DNA from: Patescibacteria group bacterium
GTDB lineage: Bacteria > Patescibacteriota > Microgenomatia > UBA1406
Length of the DNA stretch: 64,000 nucleotides
Assembly: GCA_041665145.1 (NCBI GenBank)
Contig: JBAYJK010000002.1
Coordinates: 40,339-104,338, forward strand
Direction of reading: 5' to 3'
Positions 1 to 49,223 of this stretch are shown here, piece by piece (positions within the stretch are counted from its first letter, which is position 1; each line of letters begins with the position of its first letter). The translations under genes and the position numbers were made by a program. The notes beneath the pieces are model-generated. The model searched no databases, was not told the DNA's origin, and saw only the letters and a program-made list of their open reading frames with translations.

Positions 1-590
1 GTAAAAAAGTGAAAGGCACCCCAGGAAATAAGAAGAGCGGGTATATGAATAATACCGAACGATCGCGTAAGACTGATATAATAGAGTACAAAACCAAAAA
101 TAACTCCCGAAAGCACAATCTGCCATTTGGAGCGCAAATCGTCCCGCACCATCTCTCTGAACATAACCACTGCCCCGAACAATAACAAAGTATAAGCGGT
201 TTCCGAAAGTATGCTTGATGAGTAAACAAACAATGGCGGATAGAAAGATGTCAGAAGCGCAACAGTAAGACTTCCTGTCATAATATATGCACAAACCGGA
301 ACCAGTGACGACAAAACCATTGTAACAATCAGAGCCGCTTTGTATTGCACGTTCGGGTCGTGGAAATAACCGACAAAAGTAGTAAGGATTAACGGCCAAC
401 CTCCCGGATACAGTTGATCACGATTGAAAACCGAAGTGAAATTTCCGCGAATAATCTGCCGGGCTGTATCAAGATACGTGAATTCGTCATACACAATCCA
501 GGGGATTTTGATAAAACCGTACGTGAACAAGCGAATCAATATCCCCAACAACACGATACCGACAAGCCAGACCCACGGTTTCTTAAACAT
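1..590 (-). CDS. GT-C fold membrane glycosyltransferase (PMT/ArnT, GT39/83-like), N-terminal part; the gene runs off the window edge
   Basis: Absent from the ORF track because it has no stop in the window. My reverse-complement translation from the ATG at 590-588 stays open to position 1: MFKKPWVWLVGIVLLGILIRLFTYGFIKIPWIVYDEFTYLDTARQI... It has several hydrophobic helices and a DE motif in the first loop, as in GT-C enzymes. It resembles the start of 44587..46278. Confidence 0.55.
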   Translation of the reverse strand, partial: MFKKPWVWLVGIVLLGILIRLFTYGFIKIPWIVYDEFTYLDTARQIIRGNFTSVFNRDQLYPGGWPLILTTFVGYFHDPNVQYKAALIVTMVLSSLVPVCAYIMTGSLTVALLTSFYPPLFVYSSSILSETAYTLLLFGAVVMFREMVRDDLRSKWQIVLSGVIFGFVLYYISLTRSFGIIHIPALLISWGAFHFF

Positions 591-2556: not shown

Positions 2557-3319
2557 TACATAGTACCCTCGTTTGCGGGAAATCTGGCAATAAATATGTC
2601 AGGATGCCGGTTGGCTCATATATCTATTTATCAGTGTAGTAACCAAGCTCTCTTCCTCCCTCTGTCTGGATTTAAATGTATTTTTCACCTTACTTACACC
2701 TTTATACTTTTGACTTTCTACTTCTCTTCATACAAGTACTAGCTCCTCCCCATAGAACCCGTGAAAAAGGCCTTTTAGTTTAGACTTTTATATCAATCCA
2801 AATTTCGAATTTTGAGTTCAAATTTATTCAAACACGCGTGTCATAATGGTGTCAAGTTTGGATTGTTATTTCAATCTATATTTTATAACGGACTGCTATA
2901 TCGCTCCCCACCGAGCAGTGCCATAAGTGCACGTTTTGCACACGGTGCTTAGTTTAGGTTGTTCTGTTAACCCGATTTTTAGATTAGATTGATACATCAA
3001 TCCGAGTTTGCCACCGTTGATTAGTATGCATACCAAGAGAGTGCTTAGTTTGGAACGTTATAGCAATATAACAATTTAGCAATGCTGTTCTACCGCTCAA
3101 AACATAGCACTCTCCCCAGAGTTATCCACAATCTGAGGTCAGACGGCTAAAATATTATAGGATAGTGAAAACTATAGGATATTACTATAGGATACAGAAT
3201 TGCTCACGTTCGTGAATTCTCTATTCCCTCTTCCCTGTCTCCTCGACCTCGAACTCCGCCACACAGACCTGCAATTGAAATTAGAAATTTTGAATTAAAA
3301 ATTATCAGCCACAGGCTGA

Positions 3320-10024: not shown

Positions 10025-10108
10025 GCCGGGGTGGTGAAATGGTATACACGCAGGTTTTAGGAACCTGTGACTGCTAAAGTCGTGCGGGTTCAAGTCCCGC
10101 TCCCGGCA
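10025..10108 (+). tRNA. tRNA-Leu (anticodon TAG), type II with a long variable arm; CCA not encoded
   Basis: Acceptor gccgggg/tcccggc, anticodon arm caggt-ttTAGga-acctg, variable arm tgactgctaaagtcgt, T arm gcggg-ttcaagt-cccgc. Confidence 0.9.
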
Positions 10109-10123
10109 CAGAAGTAACTATCT

Positions 10124-10184
10124 GGTTCAAGCCTGCCCGCAACGCCGCAGCGTAGCGAGGCGAGCGGGTCCTCTCCCCGGCACA
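10124..10184 (+). pseudogene. 3' fragment of tRNA-Leu (T-loop plus acceptor end) split by a GC-rich palindromic insert (family B)
   Basis: ggttcaagcc, then tgcccgcaacgccgcagcgtagcgaggcgagcggg, then tcctctccccggcaca. The end matches the tRNA 3' end ctcccggcaca, and ccccggc is a perfect complement of the 5' gccgggg. Confidence 0.55.
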
Positions 10185-10218
10185 AGAAATGCTTAGTGAG
10201 TACTCGAGCTGGGTAGAA

Positions 10219-14989: not shown

Positions 14990-15514
14990 ATGACGAACGC
15001 ATACCCAGAACACACATGGTGGATTCCCTGCCTTTATGTTAAAAAATCTGCGCTTCACGGTAACGGGATATTTACCAAACAAAAAATCAAAAAAGGAGAG
15101 AAAATAATGGTTTGGGGTGGGCAGCTTTTCAAAAAGAACGATTACGAACGTGCTCGCCCACCAACTATCGTGCCCTTCGACCACAGGCATTACATCGGAT
15201 TACCCGTGTCTGATGACAGCGAGTCCATTGACGAGTACTTAAACCACTCTTGCGACCCCAATACGTGGATGACGGATCAGATAACCATGGTCGCCAGACG
15301 GGATATTGAACCCGACGAAGAAATTACACTGGATTGGGTTATGTGGAACAGTGATGAATGGGAAATAAGCAAAAGTGGGAAGTGTTTTTGCTCCAGCAAG
15401 AATTGCCGAAAATACATAACTCCAACCGATTGGAAAATTCCTGAATTACAAAAAAGATACGCGGGTCACTTCTCTCCTCTGGTTCAGGAAAAAATTGATG
15501 CCGATTCTAAATAA
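14990..15514 (+). CDS. SET-domain protein (putative protein lysine methyltransferase) with a Cys-rich post-SET region
   Basis: 174 aa. HGNGIFT..., NHSCDPN, EEITLDW, CFCSSKNCRKY. Confidence 0.8.
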   Translation: MTNAYPEHTWWIPCLYVKKSALHGNGIFTKQKIKKGEKIMVWGGQLFKKNDYERARPPTIVPFDHRHYIGLPVSDDSESIDEYLNHSCDPNTWMTDQITMVARRDIEPDEEITLDWVMWNSDEWEISKSGKCFCSSKNCRKYITPTDWKIPELQKRYAGHFSPLVQEKIDADSK

Positions 15515-15559
15515 AGGCAGATTCTTTGGTAATAACGAATGTTACCAACAAAGAACCTG

Positions 15560-15580
15560 CCCCCGCCTCTAACGGCGGGG
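15560..15580. terminator. GC hairpin between convergent genes (possible bidirectional terminator)
   Basis: cccccgcc-tctaac-ggcgggg. It is preceded by a second hairpin tctttggtaa...ttaccaacaaaga at 15523-15554. Confidence 0.45.
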
Positions 15581-15607
15581 ACAAGGCTACTACTGATTAA
15601 GTTTGGT

Positions 15608-17218
15608 TTACCGTCGCACCGCCGACAGATACATCTGATGCACCGGCGTGTTGTACCAGGTGAACGGGATATACCCGTTCGGGCCGATCGACGCTGCGAA
15701 CCAACCGGAGGGCCGGCAGACTGCCTGACCGCCGGCGATAATGGTCGTCCGGAACTGTGTGGTGACCGTGCCTTCAGGCGGCACAACCACATAGAGTTCC
15801 AGGAAGTGCGCCTGCCCGCATCCGTTCGGGCTCGGAGAGGCCGGCGGATCCAACAAAGTCACGCTGGTTGTAATCTCTGTCCGGTTGTACACAGTAGCCG
15901 TCATCGTGACAGTGCCCGAGTACCCCAAGCTTGGGGCCCCGAACACCGGGACATTGACGCCCACCAGTGGCCCGAGGGGCAGCGATTCAAATGTAACCAC
16001 CCACTGCCCTGCTTCCCTGGCCATGTACCCGAACTCGATCGTAGTCGCTGTCGTCGCACACGCGACATGCGCCGGCATTACCTCAGCGACCGTACTGGTG
16101 AATTCCCAGCCTGCCGCCACATGCGTGGCATCATGCAGGCTCCAATCTTCAAGCACTGGCCCTGCGGAACCAACTAGCGGCTCCCCGTTAGTGAAGAGCG
16201 CATACTGCCCACAAGCGCTCACATTGTAAGCCTCCCCACGTACTTGAGGCTTGTTTGTCAGTTCCAATTTCCACGCCTGACTCTTGAACTCTTCGGACAA
16301 CACCTTGTTCGGACCAATTTCACCGAACGTGCCCCACACACCACCTTGGCGGGTGGAAAGCCACAGCTTGCCGGCAAACGTAACAGAGATACAGCGCCCG
16401 AGTAGGCACTGGCCTTCTCCCAGCCCATCCGGCAAAGCCGGGACGGGCTGGACCATGTCCCGCGACTTGCCCGATTCGAGCATGTGGGAGATGTGGACGA
16501 CCTGCCGAGTGCTGATGTTGCTGACGTACGTCAGCCCCACTCCGAGCTCAGTCGTCTCTGCGAGCCGCGGCATGAGTTGCCCGGCGGGACCGGACGGGTC
16601 GGCAGCTTTCTCGGCCGACCAGCTTCCATCAAGCTCGCGGACACGGTATCGCACCGTTCCGTCCAAGGAGTACGCGACGACCACGCGGCCGTCGGTCAAC
16701 TGCAAAGCGCTCGTCCCTTCCGGCAGATTATCATTCATACTACCGGACAGTTTCGTGAGCAACCAACTTCCGTCGCCAATTTCGGCCGTCCAAAGACCGA
16801 TGTCCGGCGAGCTACCCTTCGCCAGCACGAACAAAATCGGCTGACAATTCTGGAAAGCAATTGCTTCGAGCGAAACATTGAACTCATAGTATAGGGGGGT
16901 AATTGGGGCCAACCCAAATTCTCCCTTGTGAAAAACGGCCGGAAATGTCCGGCCCGCCGTAACGTTCGTGACTCCGCCCCAAACGCCTGCGCAGGCGTCG
17001 GCGGCCAGGATCGGTTGCACTTGATCCCCTTCTTGGGCGTCCAGCCCGGGGGCCACAGGCAACTGCAACATGAGCGGCTTATTCGGCGCCGCCACAGCCG
17101 TCGCGACCGAAGCCGCAAGATTGCACAGCTTGAACCCGATAACTAACGCCAGCACCGCTGGCGCCGTGAGGATTAACCGCCCCCACCGCGTTCGAACAAG
17201 AAACCGTCCAAGTCCCAT
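15608..17218 (-). CDS. high-GC foreign-looking gene: N-terminally anchored/secreted protein with Asp-box-like (DGSW) motifs, possible beta-propeller
   Basis: 536 aa with a hydrophobic N-terminus GRLILTAPAVLALVIGF. IGDGSWLL and ELDGSWSAEK resemble BNR/Asp boxes. Hand counts of 60-nt samples inside gave 60%, 63% and 75% GC, against 38-52% in flanking genes. AGGAGG lies 4 nt upstream of the ATG. Confidence 0.75.
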   Translation of the reverse strand: MGLGRFLVRTRWGRLILTAPAVLALVIGFKLCNLAASVATAVAAPNKPLMLQLPVAPGLDAQEGDQVQPILAADACAGVWGGVTNVTAGRTFPAVFHKGEFGLAPITPLYYEFNVSLEAIAFQNCQPILFVLAKGSSPDIGLWTAEIGDGSWLLTKLSGSMNDNLPEGTSALQLTDGRVVVAYSLDGTVRYRVRELDGSWSAEKAADPSGPAGQLMPRLAETTELGVGLTYVSNISTRQVVHISHMLESGKSRDMVQPVPALPDGLGEGQCLLGRCISVTFAGKLWLSTRQGGVWGTFGEIGPNKVLSEEFKSQAWKLELTNKPQVRGEAYNVSACGQYALFTNGEPLVGSAGPVLEDWSLHDATHVAAGWEFTSTVAEVMPAHVACATTATTIEFGYMAREAGQWVVTFESLPLGPLVGVNVPVFGAPSLGYSGTVTMTATVYNRTEITTSVTLLDPPASPSPNGCGQAHFLELYVVVPPEGTVTTQFRTTIIAGGQAVCRPSGWFAASIGPNGYIPFTWYNTPVHQMYLSAVRR

Positions 17219-17294
17219 AGGACCTCCTGTATGTTGGCTCTAAACCTTAAAATCCGGTTTATGCCATTAAACAGAAAGAAATAACTATCCCTGG

Positions 17295-17335
17295 ATTCCC
17301 GCCTTCCTGCCTCGACGGCAGGCGGGCGCGGGAAT
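17295..17335. repeat. GC-rich nested palindrome (family B-like)
   Basis: attcccgc-c-ttc-cctgcc-tcgac-ggcagg-cgggc-gcgggaat. It begins with a T-loop-like gGATTCCCGCC. Confidence 0.6.
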
Positions 17336-17612
17336 GACAGCATTACAATATAGCAATACAGCAATTTCCTTCTCTTTATCGGCATAAACCGGTAATCAGT
17401 GTAGCCTGTTAAAGAACCACACATATCGCACAGCAATATCGCGCGATACATATTTGATATGTATATTATATCTAACTATAGGATGGGAAGCAAATTACGA
17501 CTGGATAAGTTGATTTGAGAAAAAAGGAGAAATATTGGGTCCCCTTTCGCAGGGCAACAAACCTAGCGGGCCGCCTATGGCGAGCCTCGCTCCAAAATTT
17601 GTTTACAAATTT

Positions 17613-17686
17613 TGGAGCGGGATGCGGGAGTCGAACCCGCCATATCACTTTGGAAAAGTGAAGTTATACCGATTAACTAATCCCGC
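17613..17686 (-). tRNA. tRNA-Gly (anticodon TCC), CCA encoded
   Basis: gcgggat-ta-gttaatcggtataac-t-tcact-ttTCCaa-agtga-tatg-gcggg-ttcgact-cccgc-atcccgc-t-cca. The 3' end is part of a perfect 13-bp palindrome (17589-17619). Confidence 0.9.
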
Positions 17687-17717
17687 GCTAATCTTAAGCC
17701 TGCTTTCCTACTGAGGG

Positions 17718-17775
17718 AAGTTATACCGACCTTGCCCGCCGAAGCTGAAAGCGAAGGTGGGTTAACTAATCCCGC
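17718..17775 (-). pseudogene. 5' fragment of tRNA-Gly(TCC) (positions 1-27) split by a 31-nt GC-rich insert in the D-loop
   Basis: Minus strand reads gcgggattagttaa, then ccaccttcgctttcagcttcggcgggcaagg, then tcggtataacttc. Both flanks are identical to the intact tRNA 32 nt downstream, and no T-arm follows. Confidence 0.6.
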
Positions 17776-17844
17776 GTTCAGAGATATATTCTAACAAAAT
17801 ATTCTTTGTAGACAAGCTATTTCTTTAAATTTAAGCCTATAGTA

Positions 17845-17853
17845 TGGTATAAT
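17845..17853 (+). promoter_or_regulatory. extended -10 box TGgTATAAT, 5 nt before the ATG at 17859
   Basis: Consensus match seen directly. No Shine-Dalgarno sequence fits in the 5-nt gap. Confidence 0.45.
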
Positions 17854-17858
17854 TACAC

Positions 17859-18743
17859 ATGAGTACTGAATTCGACTTTCTTACCACACCGCGTCGTAGC
17901 TATCCTCCTATTCCAGGAATGAAGTACCGCAGGGAACTCCAACCGTGTAAGGATGTTCTCTTGCAAGCAAAAGGAGCTGCTATTCACCGGGTATGGCTCG
18001 AGTATCTTCGCGGAGCAAAAGTGCAGGGAAACGAGCACCTTATTCCTCTGCTACAACGATTGCAGGAGTTCTACCAGATTGTTGAACACGCCCATATATT
18101 CTGCACACCGGATCAGTTACGAGATTCCGCGCAACGGATCCATCAATTTCTCAATTTCCAGGATCCTCCTCTCTCAACCCTCATTGATTCATTTCAGGAA
18201 CTCGTCGCATGGTACGCACAACAGATTCGAGAAGAATTATTTCGTGAGCCCAATCCTCCCCTCGACTACTACGGATTTTATCGCACAAAACGCGGATTGG
18301 TTAAAATCTGTCTATCAAATAAATTGTTAAGCGAAATCAGCGACCCGAAAGATTACGCACGATTAGGCAGCTGCATGGACGGATACAATCACTTTTCGGC
18401 AAATATCGACCTTCCCGACAATCCGACACCAAAACAACTGATGCGCTACCGTCGTCGTATAGCCGAATGGTTCCGCGAAGCTCAAGAGATTGTGCGACTG
18501 CATACAAACGACAGTTATTTATGGGTAAACCTCATAAATTATCATCAGCAACTGATGCATGAAATACGCAGGCAACCCAATCCTCTGTCATGGGTACAAA
18601 AACTGGGTATAGAGGAAATTCCGCTTGATGCACCGACACAAAGCGAGCTTCGCGAAGGAAAAGCCGAGGTACCCAGCCTTGACGATGAGCTTACGGAAAT
18701 ACTTCGCGAAACAGCAATTCACCTAGGTCGGAAGAAGAAATAA
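17859..18743 (+). CDS. hypothetical protein (orphan, cytosolic)
   Basis: 294-aa ORF, helical and R/Q/H-rich, no motif recognised. Confidence 0.55.
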   Translation: MSTEFDFLTTPRRSYPPIPGMKYRRELQPCKDVLLQAKGAAIHRVWLEYLRGAKVQGNEHLIPLLQRLQEFYQIVEHAHIFCTPDQLRDSAQRIHQFLNFQDPPLSTLIDSFQELVAWYAQQIREELFREPNPPLDYYGFYRTKRGLVKICLSNKLLSEISDPKDYARLGSCMDGYNHFSANIDLPDNPTPKQLMRYRRRIAEWFREAQEIVRLHTNDSYLWVNLINYHQQLMHEIRRQPNPLSWVQKLGIEEIPLDAPTQSELREGKAEVPSLDDELTEILRETAIHLGRKKK

Positions 18744-18936: not shown

Positions 18937-19057
18937 GCCCGGGCTATGACCTATTGTCCCAGTCAGTTGGACTGACGAGTATCGTTGGCGCTAACCTGTT
19001 TCACGGCCCTGTTCGGAATGGGAAGGGGTGGGTCCAAGTCGCACAAATAACCAAGGC
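18937..19057 (-). rRNA. rrf: 5S ribosomal RNA (ends approximate, +/-5 nt)
   Basis: The minus strand contains ...cccaccccttcccattccgaacagggccgtgaaac...gcgccaacgatac..., matching the universal 5S loop B/C region CCCAUxCCGAAC...GUGAAAC. Helix I pairs gccttgg with cccgggc. Confidence 0.8.
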
Positions 19058-20865: not shown

Positions 20866-20985
20866 TAATAAAAATTCGAAATCCGAATATCGAAAATCGA
20901 AACAAATTCAAAATACAAATTTTCCTAAAAAAAGCTTTGGTAATTCGTGCTTGTTTCGAGTTTCGGATTTCGTACTTCGAATTTA
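20866..20985. repeat. TTCGAA-type word-repeat palindromic array
   Basis: Left arm aattcgaaatccgaatatcgaaaatcgaaac, right arm gtttcgagtttcggatttcgtacttcgaatt. They are imperfect inverted copies around a loop of about 50 nt. Confidence 0.8.
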
Positions 20986-21675
20986 TTTTAGTGTCAGCAA
21001 CGACTGAAGCATTTTGTCAATGTCCCCAACCATGATCCGCTCAATATTATGAAAACTCTTGTTAATCCGGTGATCCGTCACCCGATCCTGGGGAAAATTA
21101 TACGTCCTAATTTTCTCCGACCGTTCCCCGCTTCCCGCATTTGCTGCAAATGCTGATTGAACACCTTTGCGTTTATCCGCTTCCAATTGTTGCAGTCTTC
21201 CGTTCAAAAGCGACAACGCAATCAGTCTGTTCTGTTGCTGATAACGTTCTCTGGAGCATGTGACTACAAGCCCTGTCGGTTTATGGGTAAGACGTACCGC
21301 TGTGGAAACTTTGTTAACGTTCTGACCCCCGTGACCGCCACTGCGATAAAACTGCCATTCCAATTCACTTGGGTTAATATGCACATCATGCTCGACAAGC
21401 TCGGGAGTGACCAGAACTGTGGCGGCTGAAGTATGAATCCGGCCGTAGCGTTCAGTCGTCGGAACGCGTTGGACACGGTGAACGCCCGTTTCATTTTTCA
21501 TAAGATCAAAGGCGCCGTCACCCTTTAAACGCATCAGATTCTCTTCCAACATTTCGGCTTTCCAACCTCTTTTTTGGGCATACTTCATATACATAGACAT
21601 CAGGTCATTTTGCCAAATCTTGGATTCATCGCCACCTACGCCGGGGTTTACTTCAATAAAACAAGCAGATTCCAT
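20983..21675 (-). CDS. prfA: peptide chain release factor 1-like, lacking N-terminal domain 1
   Basis: 230 aa. GVHRVQRVPTTERYGRIHTSAATV (PxT-type), SGGHGGQNVNK (GGQ), RTYNFPQDRVTDHRI. The alignment to RF1 starts at about residue 105. An in-frame TAA lies 8 codons upstream, and only 92 nt separate it from rpmE. Confidence 0.8.
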   Translation of the reverse strand: MESACFIEVNPGVGGDESKIWQNDLMSMYMKYAQKRGWKAEMLEENLMRLKGDGAFDLMKNETGVHRVQRVPTTERYGRIHTSAATVLVTPELVEHDVHINPSELEWQFYRSGGHGGQNVNKVSTAVRLTHKPTGLVVTCSRERYQQQNRLIALSLLNGRLQQLEADKRKGVQSAFAANAGSGERSEKIRTYNFPQDRVTDHRINKSFHNIERIMVGDIDKMLQSLLTLK

Positions 21676-21680
21676 AATAC

Positions 21681-21760
21681 AGTTTTTAATTATTAGTTTT
21701 TAATTTCTATTTGATGAATAACACACATTTAATAGAAACTAGAAATTAGAAAATAAAAAC
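21681..21760. repeat. AGAAACT/AGTTTCT-type word-repeat palindromic array
   Basis: ttttaattattagtttttaatttctatt ... aatagaaactagaaattagaaaataaaaac. Confidence 0.75.
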
Positions 21761-22058: not shown

Positions 22059-22099
22059 AGAGGGTAATTATAATATAAAATCAATAAGAAAACAAGGAG

Positions 22100-22239
22100 A
22101 TTAAGTTGTAAGCTGAAAGATGTAAGTCGAAATAAAGTTGAAAACATAAAGCTTTAAGTTGTATTGAGATTTCATTAAAACTTACAACTTAACTAATTAC
22201 AACTTGATTACAACTTACAACTTAAACCTTACGACTTAT
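22100..22239. repeat. TTACAAC/AAGTTGTAA-type word-repeat palindromic array
   Basis: taagttgtaagctgaaagatgtaagtcgaaataaagttg ... cttacaacttaaaccttacgactta. Confidence 0.8.
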
Positions 22240-23382
22240 CTATTTGGCTTCCCCCAACACTACGTCCTTCTGCAGTGTCTGCTTGTCTCTCCAAATTTGT
22301 AGCGCAAGGCGGTCTCCTACCTTTTTAGTTCTAACGATATTGGAAATATCATCCTCTTTACCTATTTGTACGCCATCTATTTTTACAATAACATCACCTT
22401 TTTGCAAACCAGCAGAATCTGCAGAACTTCCCTGCACAACCTCGAGTATGTATGCACCTGCCGGGAGATCATTCAGTACTGCGCTTTCTTTATCCAGCAC
22501 CTTATAACGAATACCAAGGAATGGACGGGATATTTTGCCTCCCGAACTCTTATAGTTATTAATAAGCTCTTTAATAACATTTACCGGTATGGCGAACCCG
22601 ATATTCTGACCTTCTTGGGACACGGCAGTATTAATGCCGATTACCTGCCCTGCCGAACTGACAAGAGGCCCGCCGGAGTTTCCCGGGCTAATCGCGGCAT
22701 CTGTTTGAATAACATTATCAAGCCGCTCCACCGAACCCTCAAACGGAGAGCCGGCAGTTATTCCTCTTCCTAAACCGGAGACAATACCTTGGGTAACCGT
22801 GTTTCGAAATTCCCCCAGCGGCGTTCCGAATGCGATTGCCAGTTGACCGAGCTGCAATTTATCGGAGTCACCCAGTGGCAAAGGAAGCAACCCACGTGCA
22901 TCAACTTTAATGATTGCCAAGTCATTCAAAGGATCCCTGAACACCTGCACTGCCGGATACGTTTTGTTTTCTTGCGTAATAACTTTGTACGTCGCTGTCG
23001 TGTCGCTTACTACATGCTTGTTGGTAATAATCAATCCGTCCTCAGAAACAATGAATCCGCTGCCGATATTCTGTTCGATTTTCCTTGATTCACCCGGAAT
23101 TGTATTAAACGGATTTGTCGGATTAAACGGGTCAAATTGGATTGAATCCGGGTTTTGTTGTGTCGTAGAAATCGAGACGGTAACGACGGAAGGCTGTGCG
23201 TTTTTGACTACCTTAATAATTACGGATTCTTCAGAAACGACTACGACTTTTTCCGGCGTCGTGGAAGTTGTAGCGGTCTGAAAAGAAAGTTTTTTCAGTT
23301 CCGCAAACTTAATATATCCGGCTTTTACTCCGAAGACGGTCAACAGAGCTATTAATACAACAAGAATGATAATCTTTTTCAT
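22240..23382 (-). CDS. HtrA/DegP-family trypsin-like serine protease with a PDZ domain
   Basis: N-terminal TM, GSGFIVSEDGLIITNKHVV, DLAIIKV, GNSGGPL, and C-terminal PDZ (AGLQKGDVIVKIDG). Confidence 0.9.
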   Translation of the reverse strand: MKKIIILVVLIALLTVFGVKAGYIKFAELKKLSFQTATTSTTPEKVVVVSEESVIIKVVKNAQPSVVTVSISTTQQNPDSIQFDPFNPTNPFNTIPGESRKIEQNIGSGFIVSEDGLIITNKHVVSDTTATYKVITQENKTYPAVQVFRDPLNDLAIIKVDARGLLPLPLGDSDKLQLGQLAIAFGTPLGEFRNTVTQGIVSGLGRGITAGSPFEGSVERLDNVIQTDAAISPGNSGGPLVSSAGQVIGINTAVSQEGQNIGFAIPVNVIKELINNYKSSGGKISRPFLGIRYKVLDKESAVLNDLPAGAYILEVVQGSSADSAGLQKGDVIVKIDGVQIGKEDDISNIVRTKKVGDRLALQIWRDKQTLQKDVVLGEAK

Positions 23383-40075: not shown

Positions 40076-40100
40076 AGAGTCGAGTACGTGAGCGGGATAC

Positions 40101-40153
40101 GGCCTGCCCGCCATCGCTACGCTCAGGCGTTAGCGGGCGGGGAATCGAACCCT
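40101..40153 (-). repeat. GC-rich palindromic element, family B, embedded in a tRNA 3'-fragment-like sequence
   Basis: Minus strand reads gggttcgattcc, then ccgcccgctaacgcctgagcgtagcgatggcgggcagg, then ccgtatcccgctca. The core aacgccNNagcgtagcgaNggcg is shared with 10141-10164. Confidence 0.6.
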
Positions 40154-40156
40154 TTG

Positions 40157-40229
40157 AGCGGCGGACGGGATTTGAACCCGCGACCTCCTGCTTGGGAAGC
40201 AGGCATTCTACCAACTGAACTACCGCCGC
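40157..40229 (-). tRNA. tRNA-Gly (anticodon CCC), CCA not encoded
   Basis: gcggcgg-ta-gttcagttggtagaat-g-cctgc-ttCCCaa-gcagg-aggtc-gcggg-ttcaaat-cccgt-ccgccgc-t. Confidence 0.9.
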
Positions 40230-48851: not shown

Positions 48852-49223
48852 ATGAAATATGAAATTGCCCCGGAAATAAAGAAACAAGTTGATATTTTAA
48901 TCGACAAACTCGGATTTGACCATGTTATACCCGAACGCATTTATTGCATCCGCAGTTTCGACGCTCAAACCCGCGCAATTGCCCGCATCTGGGGCATGGC
49001 CAAACTGTTTACCGAGGTCGTAGGCATTCCTCCCCACTACATTATCGAAGTAAATTCCAAGCGGTTCGACAAGCTTCATCCCCGCGACAAAATGAAAACA
49101 CTGGTGCACGAATTAATGCATATCCCCAAGACATTCTCGGGCGCGCTCCTGTCACATCGTGGCCCCCATCACAGGATTAATGACAAAGAGGTGGAAAAAA
49201 TTCTCAGAGAGATCGAGAAATAA
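48852..49223 (+). CDS. small putative zinc metallopeptidase (HExxH)
   Basis: 123 aa. LVHELMHIPKTFSG...HRGPHH. TAGAAT lies 6 nt before the ATG. Confidence 0.55.
   Translation: MKYEIAPEIKKQVDILIDKLGFDHVIPERIYCIRSFDAQTRAIARIWGMAKLFTEVVGIPPHYIIEVNSKRFDKLHPRDKMKTLVHELMHIPKTFSGALLSHRGPHHRINDKEVEKILREIEK

Follow-up and report, generated by a model that had tools for sequence, protein, structure and literature searches.

A GC-rich, fast-diverging orphan gene of a Roizmanbacteria-like bacterium whose compositional anomaly appears to persist rather than to ameliorate

Compositionally atypical genes that have been acquired laterally are described by the amelioration model of Lawrence and Ochman, and exposed surface proteins are often under diversifying selection. 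For the Asp-box β-propellers the reference families are BNR, BNR_2 and related ones in Pfam. Among the S-layer and other major surface genes, the mRNA of slpA of Lactobacillus carries in its 5′ untranslated region (5′UTR) a stem-loop that stabilises the message and also exposes the ribosome-binding site (PMC10221546), and in the hbs mRNA of Bacillus subtilis, the 5′UTR of which is highly structured, the ribosomes that initiate at a strong Shine-Dalgarno (SD) sequence block RNase J1 (PMC5737220). Here we analyse a stretch of 64 kb from contig JBAYJK010000002.1 of a Patescibacteria group bacterium, called the window below, with the rest of the window being the reference for comparisons of GC content. 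The subject is a single GC-rich gene in it, called the target:

15608-17218 (-): target coding sequence (CDS), encoding 536 amino acids (aa), 56.9 kDa, pI 5.5

The gene for RNase J, which is 2 kb from the target, is 61-69% identical to genes of metagenome-assembled genomes of Candidatus Roizmanbacteria, and the host is a tiny-celled, uncultivated, Roizmanbacteria-like bacterium of the candidate phyla radiation (CPR), which agrees with the guess of an episymbiont made in the initial annotation of the locus. As argued below from a comparison of two sequences, the compositional anomaly of the target persists instead of ameliorating, which is an unusual pattern.

Base composition of the target and its syntenic homolog

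The target CDS has a GC content of 60.3%, as compared with 42.8% in the rest of the window, where sliding windows of 1611 nt give 42.8±1.6% with a maximum of 46.7%. The GC contents at the first, second and third codon positions (GC1, GC2 and GC3) are 0.61, 0.50 and 0.70, as compared with 0.52±0.05, 0.36±0.04 and 0.43±0.05 in the 53 other long open reading frames (ORFs), and the order GC3>GC1>GC2 was counted for real coding. Codons ending in G or C are favoured in every amino-acid class, the codon-usage distance to the host is 1.43 (0.89±0.19 for host genes), and there are seven overlapping shadow ORFs of 60 aa or more. In steps of 100 nt, the stop codon separates a GC content of 0.45 from one of 0.58, and at the start codon the value drops from 0.61 to 0.42. 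These results bear out what the initial annotation had claimed, i.e., that the CDS is compositionally foreign, that the composition switches near the stop and start codons, that G/C-ending codons are strongly preferred and that long shadow ORFs are present; in the GC3 and codon statistics that it proposed as a check, the target is a clear outlier relative to the 53 ORFs and to the codon usage of the host. By the parametric criteria for recent horizontal gene transfer (HGT), the target is thus atypical in GC, in GC3 and in codon usage.

The encoded protein is rich in Ala, Gly, Pro, Val, Thr and Trp and poor in Lys, Ile and Asn. When it is recoded with the synonymous preferences of the host, the GC content is still 51.7%, with a GC3 of 0.45, implying that about half of the GC excess arises from the amino acids and about half from silent codon choice. 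The possibility, also raised in the initial annotation, that the composition is driven by the protein itself thus accounts for about half of the excess but not for the other, silent half. Taken together, the data support the target as a single-gene unit with sharp borders, looking foreign in GC content, in codon usage and in its SD-led translation.

Exhaustive scanning of 1.84 billion representative proteins with HMMER, the kind of check that had been proposed, gave one other member of the family besides the target, namely P0002 of 517 aa (E = 1.6e-18), which is 29% identical to the target over 412 residues (pairwise E = 2e-27). P0002 is encoded on L007, a 3-kb Logan contig, where it sits 88 bp from the ortholog of the Ddl-like gene of the window, the two Ddl-like genes having 79% identity in protein and 70% in DNA. 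The copy on L007 has a GC content of 61.9% and a GC3 of 0.71, next to a Ddl-like neighbour with a GC content of 40%. Moreover, the flanks of the two copies can be aligned by blastn, with 76% identity upstream (17484-17377 in the window versus 347-455 on L007) and 79% identity downstream (15598-15518 versus 2087-2171), and between these conserved flanks the two target CDSs have a nucleotide identity of 43% and are undetectable by blastn. The syntenic ortholog together with the homologous regulatory DNA implies that the gene was at the locus before the two lineages split, and the comparison of the two loci thus shows what is to be read as a long residence there, predating the split between the window and L007. 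The divergence of the protein, to about 30% identity, far exceeds that of the neighbour (79%) and of the flanks. Only two members of the family were found, both in Roizmanbacteria-like contexts.

The age of the split can be compared with the state of the silent sites. In the Ddl-like genes, 35.9% of the four-fold degenerate sites are identical, as compared with 26.4% by chance (n=92), and in the target homologs 34% are identical, as compared with 31% by chance. The GC content at these sites (GC4) is 0.720 and 0.722 in the two target homologs, as compared with 0.456 in the window genes and 0.336 in the Ddl-like gene of L007, and the codon-usage distance is 0.85 between the homologs, as compared with 1.43 and 1.57 from the host. 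Since the silent sites of the Ddl-like genes are near saturation, neutral amelioration should have wiped out the GC bias. In a decay calculation with bootstrap, where a single ancestral copy, neutral amelioration and the silent rate of the neighbour are assumed, the neutral decay needs an ancestral GC4 of 1.20 (95% interval 0.98-3.9), and a possible value (at most 1) is obtained in 4.7% of the bootstraps. The composition of the target thus looks maintained, not residual, a result that is statistically borderline and comes from one pair of sequences. What the comparison does show is that the GC content, the codon usage and the SD sequence are stable in both lineages. In relation to ameliorating transferred genes, the target is similar in that its atypical GC, GC3 and codon usage are confined to one ORF and in that its distribution among the relatives is patchy. 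By contrast, its composition is undecayed in two lineages with near-saturated silent sites, and it is syntenic, has conserved regulatory DNA of the native type and has no detectable donor family.

As to the presence in relatives, which the initial annotation had suggested examining, the outcome is mixed, with an ortholog at the same locus on L007 and none on contig L010 or in the more distant relatives. In relatives with a Ddl-like protein of 53-56% identity, the ATP-grasp gene pair is kept, the downstream content differs and there is no GC-rich island. In JGI 3300075153, a relative with a Ddl-like protein of 75% identity has a truncated ORF of 198 aa on the opposite strand 90 bp after the Ddl-like gene, as on L007, and this ORF is possibly a third ortholog. 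The loci that were anchored at RNase J in genomes and metagenomes end before the target locus on the relevant side. In the window, a SET-domain gene, 14990-15514 (+), lies between the Ddl-like gene and the target; it is missing from L007, and on L010 a SET-domain gene (2608-3000) and the Ddl-like gene are on opposite strands. Within this group, the junction that follows the ATP-grasp gene pair is variable. On the other side of the gene, L007 has at 45-326 (+), upstream of the homolog, an ORF of 93 aa with a GC content of 49%, which has no counterpart in the window and is at the position of the tRNA-Gly gene of the window, implying that the upstream neighbourhoods of the two genomes differ.

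Predicted transcription unit and encoded protein

From its sequence elements, the target is predicted to be a stand-alone transcription unit that is composed of a promoter, a leader with a 5′ palindrome and a long hairpin, an SD sequence, the CDS and a terminator. In the direction of transcription the elements are:

17465-17493 (-): candidate sigma-70-type promoter, putative in function, with -35 TTGCTT at 17493-17488, a 17-nt spacer and -10 TATAAT at 17470-17465
17446-17464 (-): 8-bp palindrome interrupted by a 3-nt spacer, ATACATAT-CAA-ATATGTAT, where the transcript is predicted to begin
17395-17421 (-): 27-nt leader block TGTGGTTCTTTAACAGGCTACACTGAT, invariant between the window and L007 in the alignment
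17254-17392 (-): long 5′ leader hairpin with arms at 17364-17392 and 17254-17282 (inverted repeat I1)
17223-17228 (-): Shine-Dalgarno sequence AGGAGG, 4 nt 5′ of the ATG at 17218
15556-15585 (-): intrinsic-terminator-like GC-rich hairpin of 12 pairs, 9 of them G-C, followed by TTCTTTGTT
15518-15563 (-): conserved post-terminator block, with a 24-mer at 15540-15563 that is identical in L007 and a hairpin TTGGTAA-N9-TTACCAA at 15526-15548

Transcription is predicted to start near 17458. The layout of the promoter is kept on L007 (TTGTTT-17-TATAAT), and a consensus promoter scan missed the target promoter because its -35 element matches at 3 of 6 positions. The palindrome at the predicted 5′ end has on L007 the equivalent ATACACAT-CTG-ATGTGTAT, where mirror-image changes (T>C with A>G) preserve the symmetry, and it may be a 5′-terminal RNA stem-loop or an operator. 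The leader is about 240 nt long. Its 27-nt block, for which 0 chance matches are expected, and GGGGCAGGTTCTTTGTTGGTAACA, which is likewise a conserved flank word, are unique within the window, as are the other conserved flank motifs. The RNA fold of the leader has z = -6.8 in the window and z = -7.3 on L007, and in the 26 basal pairs of the hairpin 98% of the cells are paired, 4 pairs having compensatory double changes and G-U pairs occurring. The apex of the hairpin, of about 81 nt, is absent from L007 and carries words of the ACAGCAAT type and the GC-rich palindrome 17295-17335; the initial annotation had recorded this palindrome correctly but had grouped it with the tRNA-Gly gene, and it is in fact the tip of the hairpin in the target's own 5′ leader. 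The AGGAGG of the target, noted there as a strong ribosome-binding site, is the only one among 24 copies in the window that adjoins a start codon, and the homolog on L007 has AAGGAGG 7 nt 5′ of its ATG. At the place of the terminator, L007 has a GC-rich stem of different sequence, followed by the identical CAGGTTCTTTGTTGGTAACA. A gene of 92 aa (83 aa in JGI) at 17173-17451 (-) is called by JGI and ENA; since it overlaps the leader hairpin and the target start, and since no ORF is called at the matching place on L007, it is probably spurious.

This architecture can be set beside the start regions of the native genes, most of which have a TATAAT-like box 5-10 nt 5′ of the ATG without an SD sequence (for example, at 17824-17861, 21675-21705 and 22061-22090), with an SD-like core at a plausible start in only about 2-3 of 50 native ORFs. 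The closeness of the TATAAT box to the ATG and the lack of an SD sequence indicate that the genome has mainly leaderless mRNAs, as had been suspected for many native genes from the start. A full-text literature search for leaderless, Shine-Dalgarno and Patescibacteria together found no paper. The initial annotation had also pointed to repeated TAGCAAT words at 17340-17375; a single TAGCAAT is present there, and it is the related octamer ACAGCAAT that is modestly enriched over the window, with 8 copies as compared with 2.1 expected, a number that 0 of 100 shuffles reach:

9046, 17358, 17430, 18711, 41242, 41990, 53469 and 59818: copies of ACAGCAAT, two of them within the leader of the target

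We now consider the protein. At the N-terminus of both homologs, a basic stretch precedes some 20 hydrophobic residues, forming a signal peptide or an anchor, and an anchored or secreted extracellular product is therefore plausible, in keeping with the N-terminal hydrophobic segment and the anchored surface protein that had been proposed. Beyond the first 45 residues the pI is 5.05 in the target and 4.67 in P0002, and both proteins are rich in Gly, Ala, Val, Thr, Pro and Trp. The product is acidic and plausibly rich in β strands and exported, being anchored by the N-terminal segment or released after cleavage, and its most likely role is that of a cell-surface protein, an adhesin or an envelope protein. 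The profiles of Pfam and NCBIfam gave no family for either homolog at E <= 1-10, the PHROGs and PADLOC scans of both gave nothing of use, the sequence searches of the PDB, whether the query was the single protein or the two-sequence profile, gave only noise even at E <= 10, and the profile scans of the target and P0002 detected no SLH or other cell-wall anchoring domain.

The two DGSW motifs on which the Asp-box assignment of the initial annotation had been based are indeed present, at residues 149 and 197 of the target, with VGTW and SGTW at the aligned places of P0002, and in the homologs such motifs come after β-strand-like segments (DGRVVVAY / DGRLLVAY), in resemblance to the blades of a propeller. 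The assignment itself is not supported: unlike the BNR/Asp-box propellers, the target has no profile match, no sequence match in the PDB and no internal blade repeats detectable by self-BLAST, and the canonical Asp-box S/T-x-D-x-G-x-x-W/F is absent from both homologs in a pattern search, the relaxed [DVS]G[ST]W occurring twice in each protein. The AlphaFold2 models, unreliable as they are, show mostly β strands. When the model with a predicted local distance difference test (pLDDT) score of about 35 was compared with the PDB by Foldseek, the top matches were almost all β-propellers, among them PLL/PHL lectins, CyRPA, GH33 sialidases and sortilin, and were non-significant (best E 5.6e-3, template-modelling score <= 0.17). 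The term β-propeller-like is thus to be taken as a lead only.

As compared with S-layer and other major surface genes such as slpA, the target is similar in being a stand-alone unit with a strong -10 box and a long 5′UTR with stable stem-loops, in its strong exposed SD sequence, strong terminator and N-terminal export signal, and in the acidic, β-rich and fast-evolving product. An export signal, a 5′UTR stem-loop, a ribosome-binding site and a terminator are all present, so that the likeness is one of architectural features only. Unlike the S-layer families, the target has no sequence or domain similarity to them and no SLH or cell-wall-binding domain, and it has nine cysteines.

The favoured explanation and its rivals

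The explanation that we favour, with moderate confidence, is that the target is a resident, lineage-restricted and fast-diverging orphan gene for a surface protein, which forms its own transcription unit and the GC-richness of which is actively maintained. The gene would originally have come from a high-GC, SD-using donor by an ancient transfer, and the protein would since have been under diversifying selection as an exposed surface molecule. The GC content of the silent sites would be kept up, not left over, the likeliest cause being selection on the mRNA, i.e., on its structure, its stability or the way in which an SD-led message is translated where leaderless ones prevail. By analogy with the S-layer genes, the 5′ stem-loops and the strong SD sequence may stabilise the mRNA for high expression; RNase J is encoded in the host genome, 2 kb from the target.

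Several points weigh against this explanation. All the evolutionary inference comes from one pairwise comparison and one partial neighbour gene with 92 four-fold sites. The amelioration test is borderline, with about 5% of the bootstraps compatible with neutral decay, and it presumes that the silent rate of the neighbour fits the target. On L010, where the Ddl-like protein is 73% identical, a SET gene and a low-GC ORF are present where the target would be, meaning that the gene was lost there or was gained within the subclade. To our knowledge, there is no mechanism that selects GC-rich silent sites in one gene. A foreign origin is read from the composition and the SD sequence alone, since no donor homolog was found. 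As for the product, a classical S-layer protein would not usually have nine cysteines, the AlphaFold2 models (pLDDT 37.7 without an alignment and 34.8 with the two-sequence alignment) are unusable, and the surface location and the high expression are both what we infer.

Among the rivals, the one that survives best is recurrent replacement of alleles or cassettes, in which the flanks serve as homology arms and divergent alleles come from an unsampled, possibly high-GC, pool, so that the two copies would have arrived separately. This would explain why the flanks are conserved up to the start and stop codons with the CDS scrambled between them, and why the GC4 values are equal despite the different host backgrounds, as if equilibrated in another genomic background, and it would fit the variability among the relatives of the junction downstream of the ATP-grasp gene pair. 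Yet a distant high-GC donor would lack the low-GC Roizmanbacteria flanks that homologous exchange needs, no more alleles or donors were found among 15 billion proteins, and no recombinase and no att-like repeats are present. We thus regard this replacement as possible but doubtful.

A second rival places the cause within the CDS. We consider it unlikely that a CDS-confined force, either a targeted GC-biased mutator or conversion or else a strong selection on mRNA composition tied to the SD-led translation, holds the GC4 at about 0.72 in two AT-leaning CPR backgrounds, with the protein being scrambled. The form in which a process confined to the CDS accounts for the hyper-divergence as well as the GC content is quite improbable, the candidates being a GC-biased mutator and, at a recombination hotspot, biased gene conversion. 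It would have the merit of giving one cause for the saturation of the CDS, the conserved flanks and the shared GC4 equilibrium of 0.72. But tracts of gene conversion would not end at start and stop codons, we know of no such system, and the 64 kb of the window contain neither a reverse transcriptase nor a template repeat nor any other mutator gene. Moreover, since the amino-acid composition is shifted and the frame is kept open, selection is required in any case, which also counts against such a process. The target of a diversity-generating retroelement and an integron cassette were considered as well and rejected: the window has no reverse transcriptase and no integron-type integrase, the conserved flank motifs are unique, and no long direct repeat of the CDS sequence that could be a template repeat is present in the window.

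Recent acquisition, which the initial annotation had taken as the plausible reading, would mean a one-off transfer from a high-GC organism, possibly the host cell of an episymbiont, with insertion beside the following gene:

17613-17686 (-): tRNA-Gly(TCC)

In its favour, the target departs from the rest of the genome in GC content, GC3, codon usage and SD sequence, its borders coincide sharply with the ends of the CDS, and it is missing in the more distant relatives. Against it stands above all the ortholog of about 30% identity at the same locus in a relative with near-saturated silent sites, which has the same high GC and GC3, an SD sequence and the shared low-GC promoter, leader and terminator DNA; orthologs of equally high GC at the same locus in all relatives were what the initial annotation itself had named as refuting its reading, and this is largely what was found. 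Of the further marks of recent HGT, absence from the same locus in relatives does not hold, and the closest homologs are not in a donor lineage. When 5.8 billion clusters were searched by a word index, both the protein and the profile gave only the target itself, and no homolog is present in GTDB species genomes, JGI metagenome contigs, IMG/VR, phages or plasmids. An origin from a high-GC donor or host thus finds no support in any collection searched, P0002 being the only other homolog.

The tRNA-Gly gene is indeed about 400 bp from the target, as had been noted, and by this distance, by its foreign look and by a tRNA fragment nearby the target resembles the islands associated with tRNA genes. 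The fragment, at 17714-17729 and 17762-17776, is from the 5′ half of tRNA-Gly (15 nt of the acceptor and D-arm, and 16 nt of the D-arm and anticodon stem), is split by a GC-rich insert of 32 nt and lies directly upstream of the intact tRNA-Gly gene. Thus the partial tRNA copy of the initial annotation exists, but the tRNA lies between it and the target, so that it does not bracket the island. Unlike in tRNA-associated islands, no integrase is present between 5.6 and 27 kb of the window, the only ORF of the Phage_integrase family (XerC/D-like) being at 706-1635, 14 kb from the target; no direct repeat of the 3′ tRNA end (attL/attR) was found, nor any repeat near 15500-15610, at the far border. 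No tRNA gene is present on L007, and with the fragment also on the wrong side, the adjacency of the tRNA appears incidental. A tRNA-integrated genomic island is therefore rejected, the tRNA association can no longer be read as integration, and recent transfer as a whole is very unlikely. Next to the tRNA gene, a perfect 15-bp palindrome at 17588-17619 (CGCTCCAAAATTTGT / ACAAATTTTGGAGCG) overlaps the 3′ end of tRNA-Gly with its right arm and a second GC-rich hairpin, at 17561-17597, with its left arm. The tRNA genes 10025-10109 and 40156-40229 likewise have GC-rich hairpins next to them, at 10128-10189 and 40087-40125, so that such hairpins after tRNA genes are native features.

It remains to consider the reality of the gene and of the assembly. 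In an ENA contig (L008; 479,716 bp, with a MEGAHIT-style k141 name), a stretch of 9 kb that takes in both junctions shows 100% identity to the window, and a Logan contig (L009; 7,650 bp) is 100% identical over an overlap of 5.7 kb that also spans both junctions; the two contigs were reached via the adjacent Ddl-like protein. The same product of 536 aa is annotated in NCBI and ENA (MFA6005988.1 and MFA6421133.1, 'hypothetical protein, Patescibacteria group bacterium'), and in the JGI gene call the protein has 515 aa, starting from a GTG at residue 22. The alternatives of an antisense gene or a large structured RNA in place of the CDS are rejected, since the target frame is the only one that is open over the full length in both genomes and is conserved; an Rfam scan gave tRNA and nothing else. 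The chance that a high-GC fragment was mis-joined into a CPR contig is practically nil, since, for all the abruptness of the composition change and the metagenomic origin of the DNA, the JGI, ENA and Logan assemblies are identical at both junctions, the two flanks are from one genome, the breaks match a complete gene with a host-like promoter and terminator, and the same architecture is present in the second genome.

Genomic surroundings and meaning

The neighbours of the target are housekeeping genes, those for DnaB, a release factor, L31, RNase J, CysRS, TrpRS/TyrRS, Obg, RecR, phosphoribosyl pyrophosphate synthetase, ribosome recycling factor and a DNA polymerase III subunit, and domain scans of the ORFs of at least 120 aa found no transposase and no reverse transcriptase in the 64 kb. 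A 5S rRNA gene, 18938-19055 (-), is solitary between a hypothetical gene of 294 aa and RNase J, with no 16S or 23S rRNA gene in the window. The release factor homolog, 20983-21675 (-), with PCRF and RF-1 domains, has only 230 aa; its ORF starts 92 nt after the stop codon of L31 with no coding sequence upstream, and it seems to be without most of the usual N-terminal region. The stretch 22120-22240 (-), upstream of the L31 gene, is crowded with word repeats of the AAGTTGTAA / ACAACTTAA type. A small ORF at 48852-49223 (+) carries a 'putative phage metallopeptidase' domain (PF18894, E = 3e-19) and has the top GC3 among the native ORFs, 0.545.

Atypical composition is routinely taken as recent HGT, and for the target that reading fails. 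Since the anomaly is common to a syntenic and highly diverged ortholog and is seemingly stable, an HGT call based on composition would date the event wrongly. If the high GC content is indeed maintained, the locus would offer a compact natural setting in which to test for selection or biased processes that act on the silent sites of one gene, and it would also test how an SD-led mRNA with a long leader is handled in an otherwise leaderless genome. If a CDS-confined force is true, the gene-specific base composition would be a maintained trait instead of the fading scar of a transfer. The protein, being lineage-specific, fast-evolving and probably exposed, is a candidate for attachment to a host or to particles.

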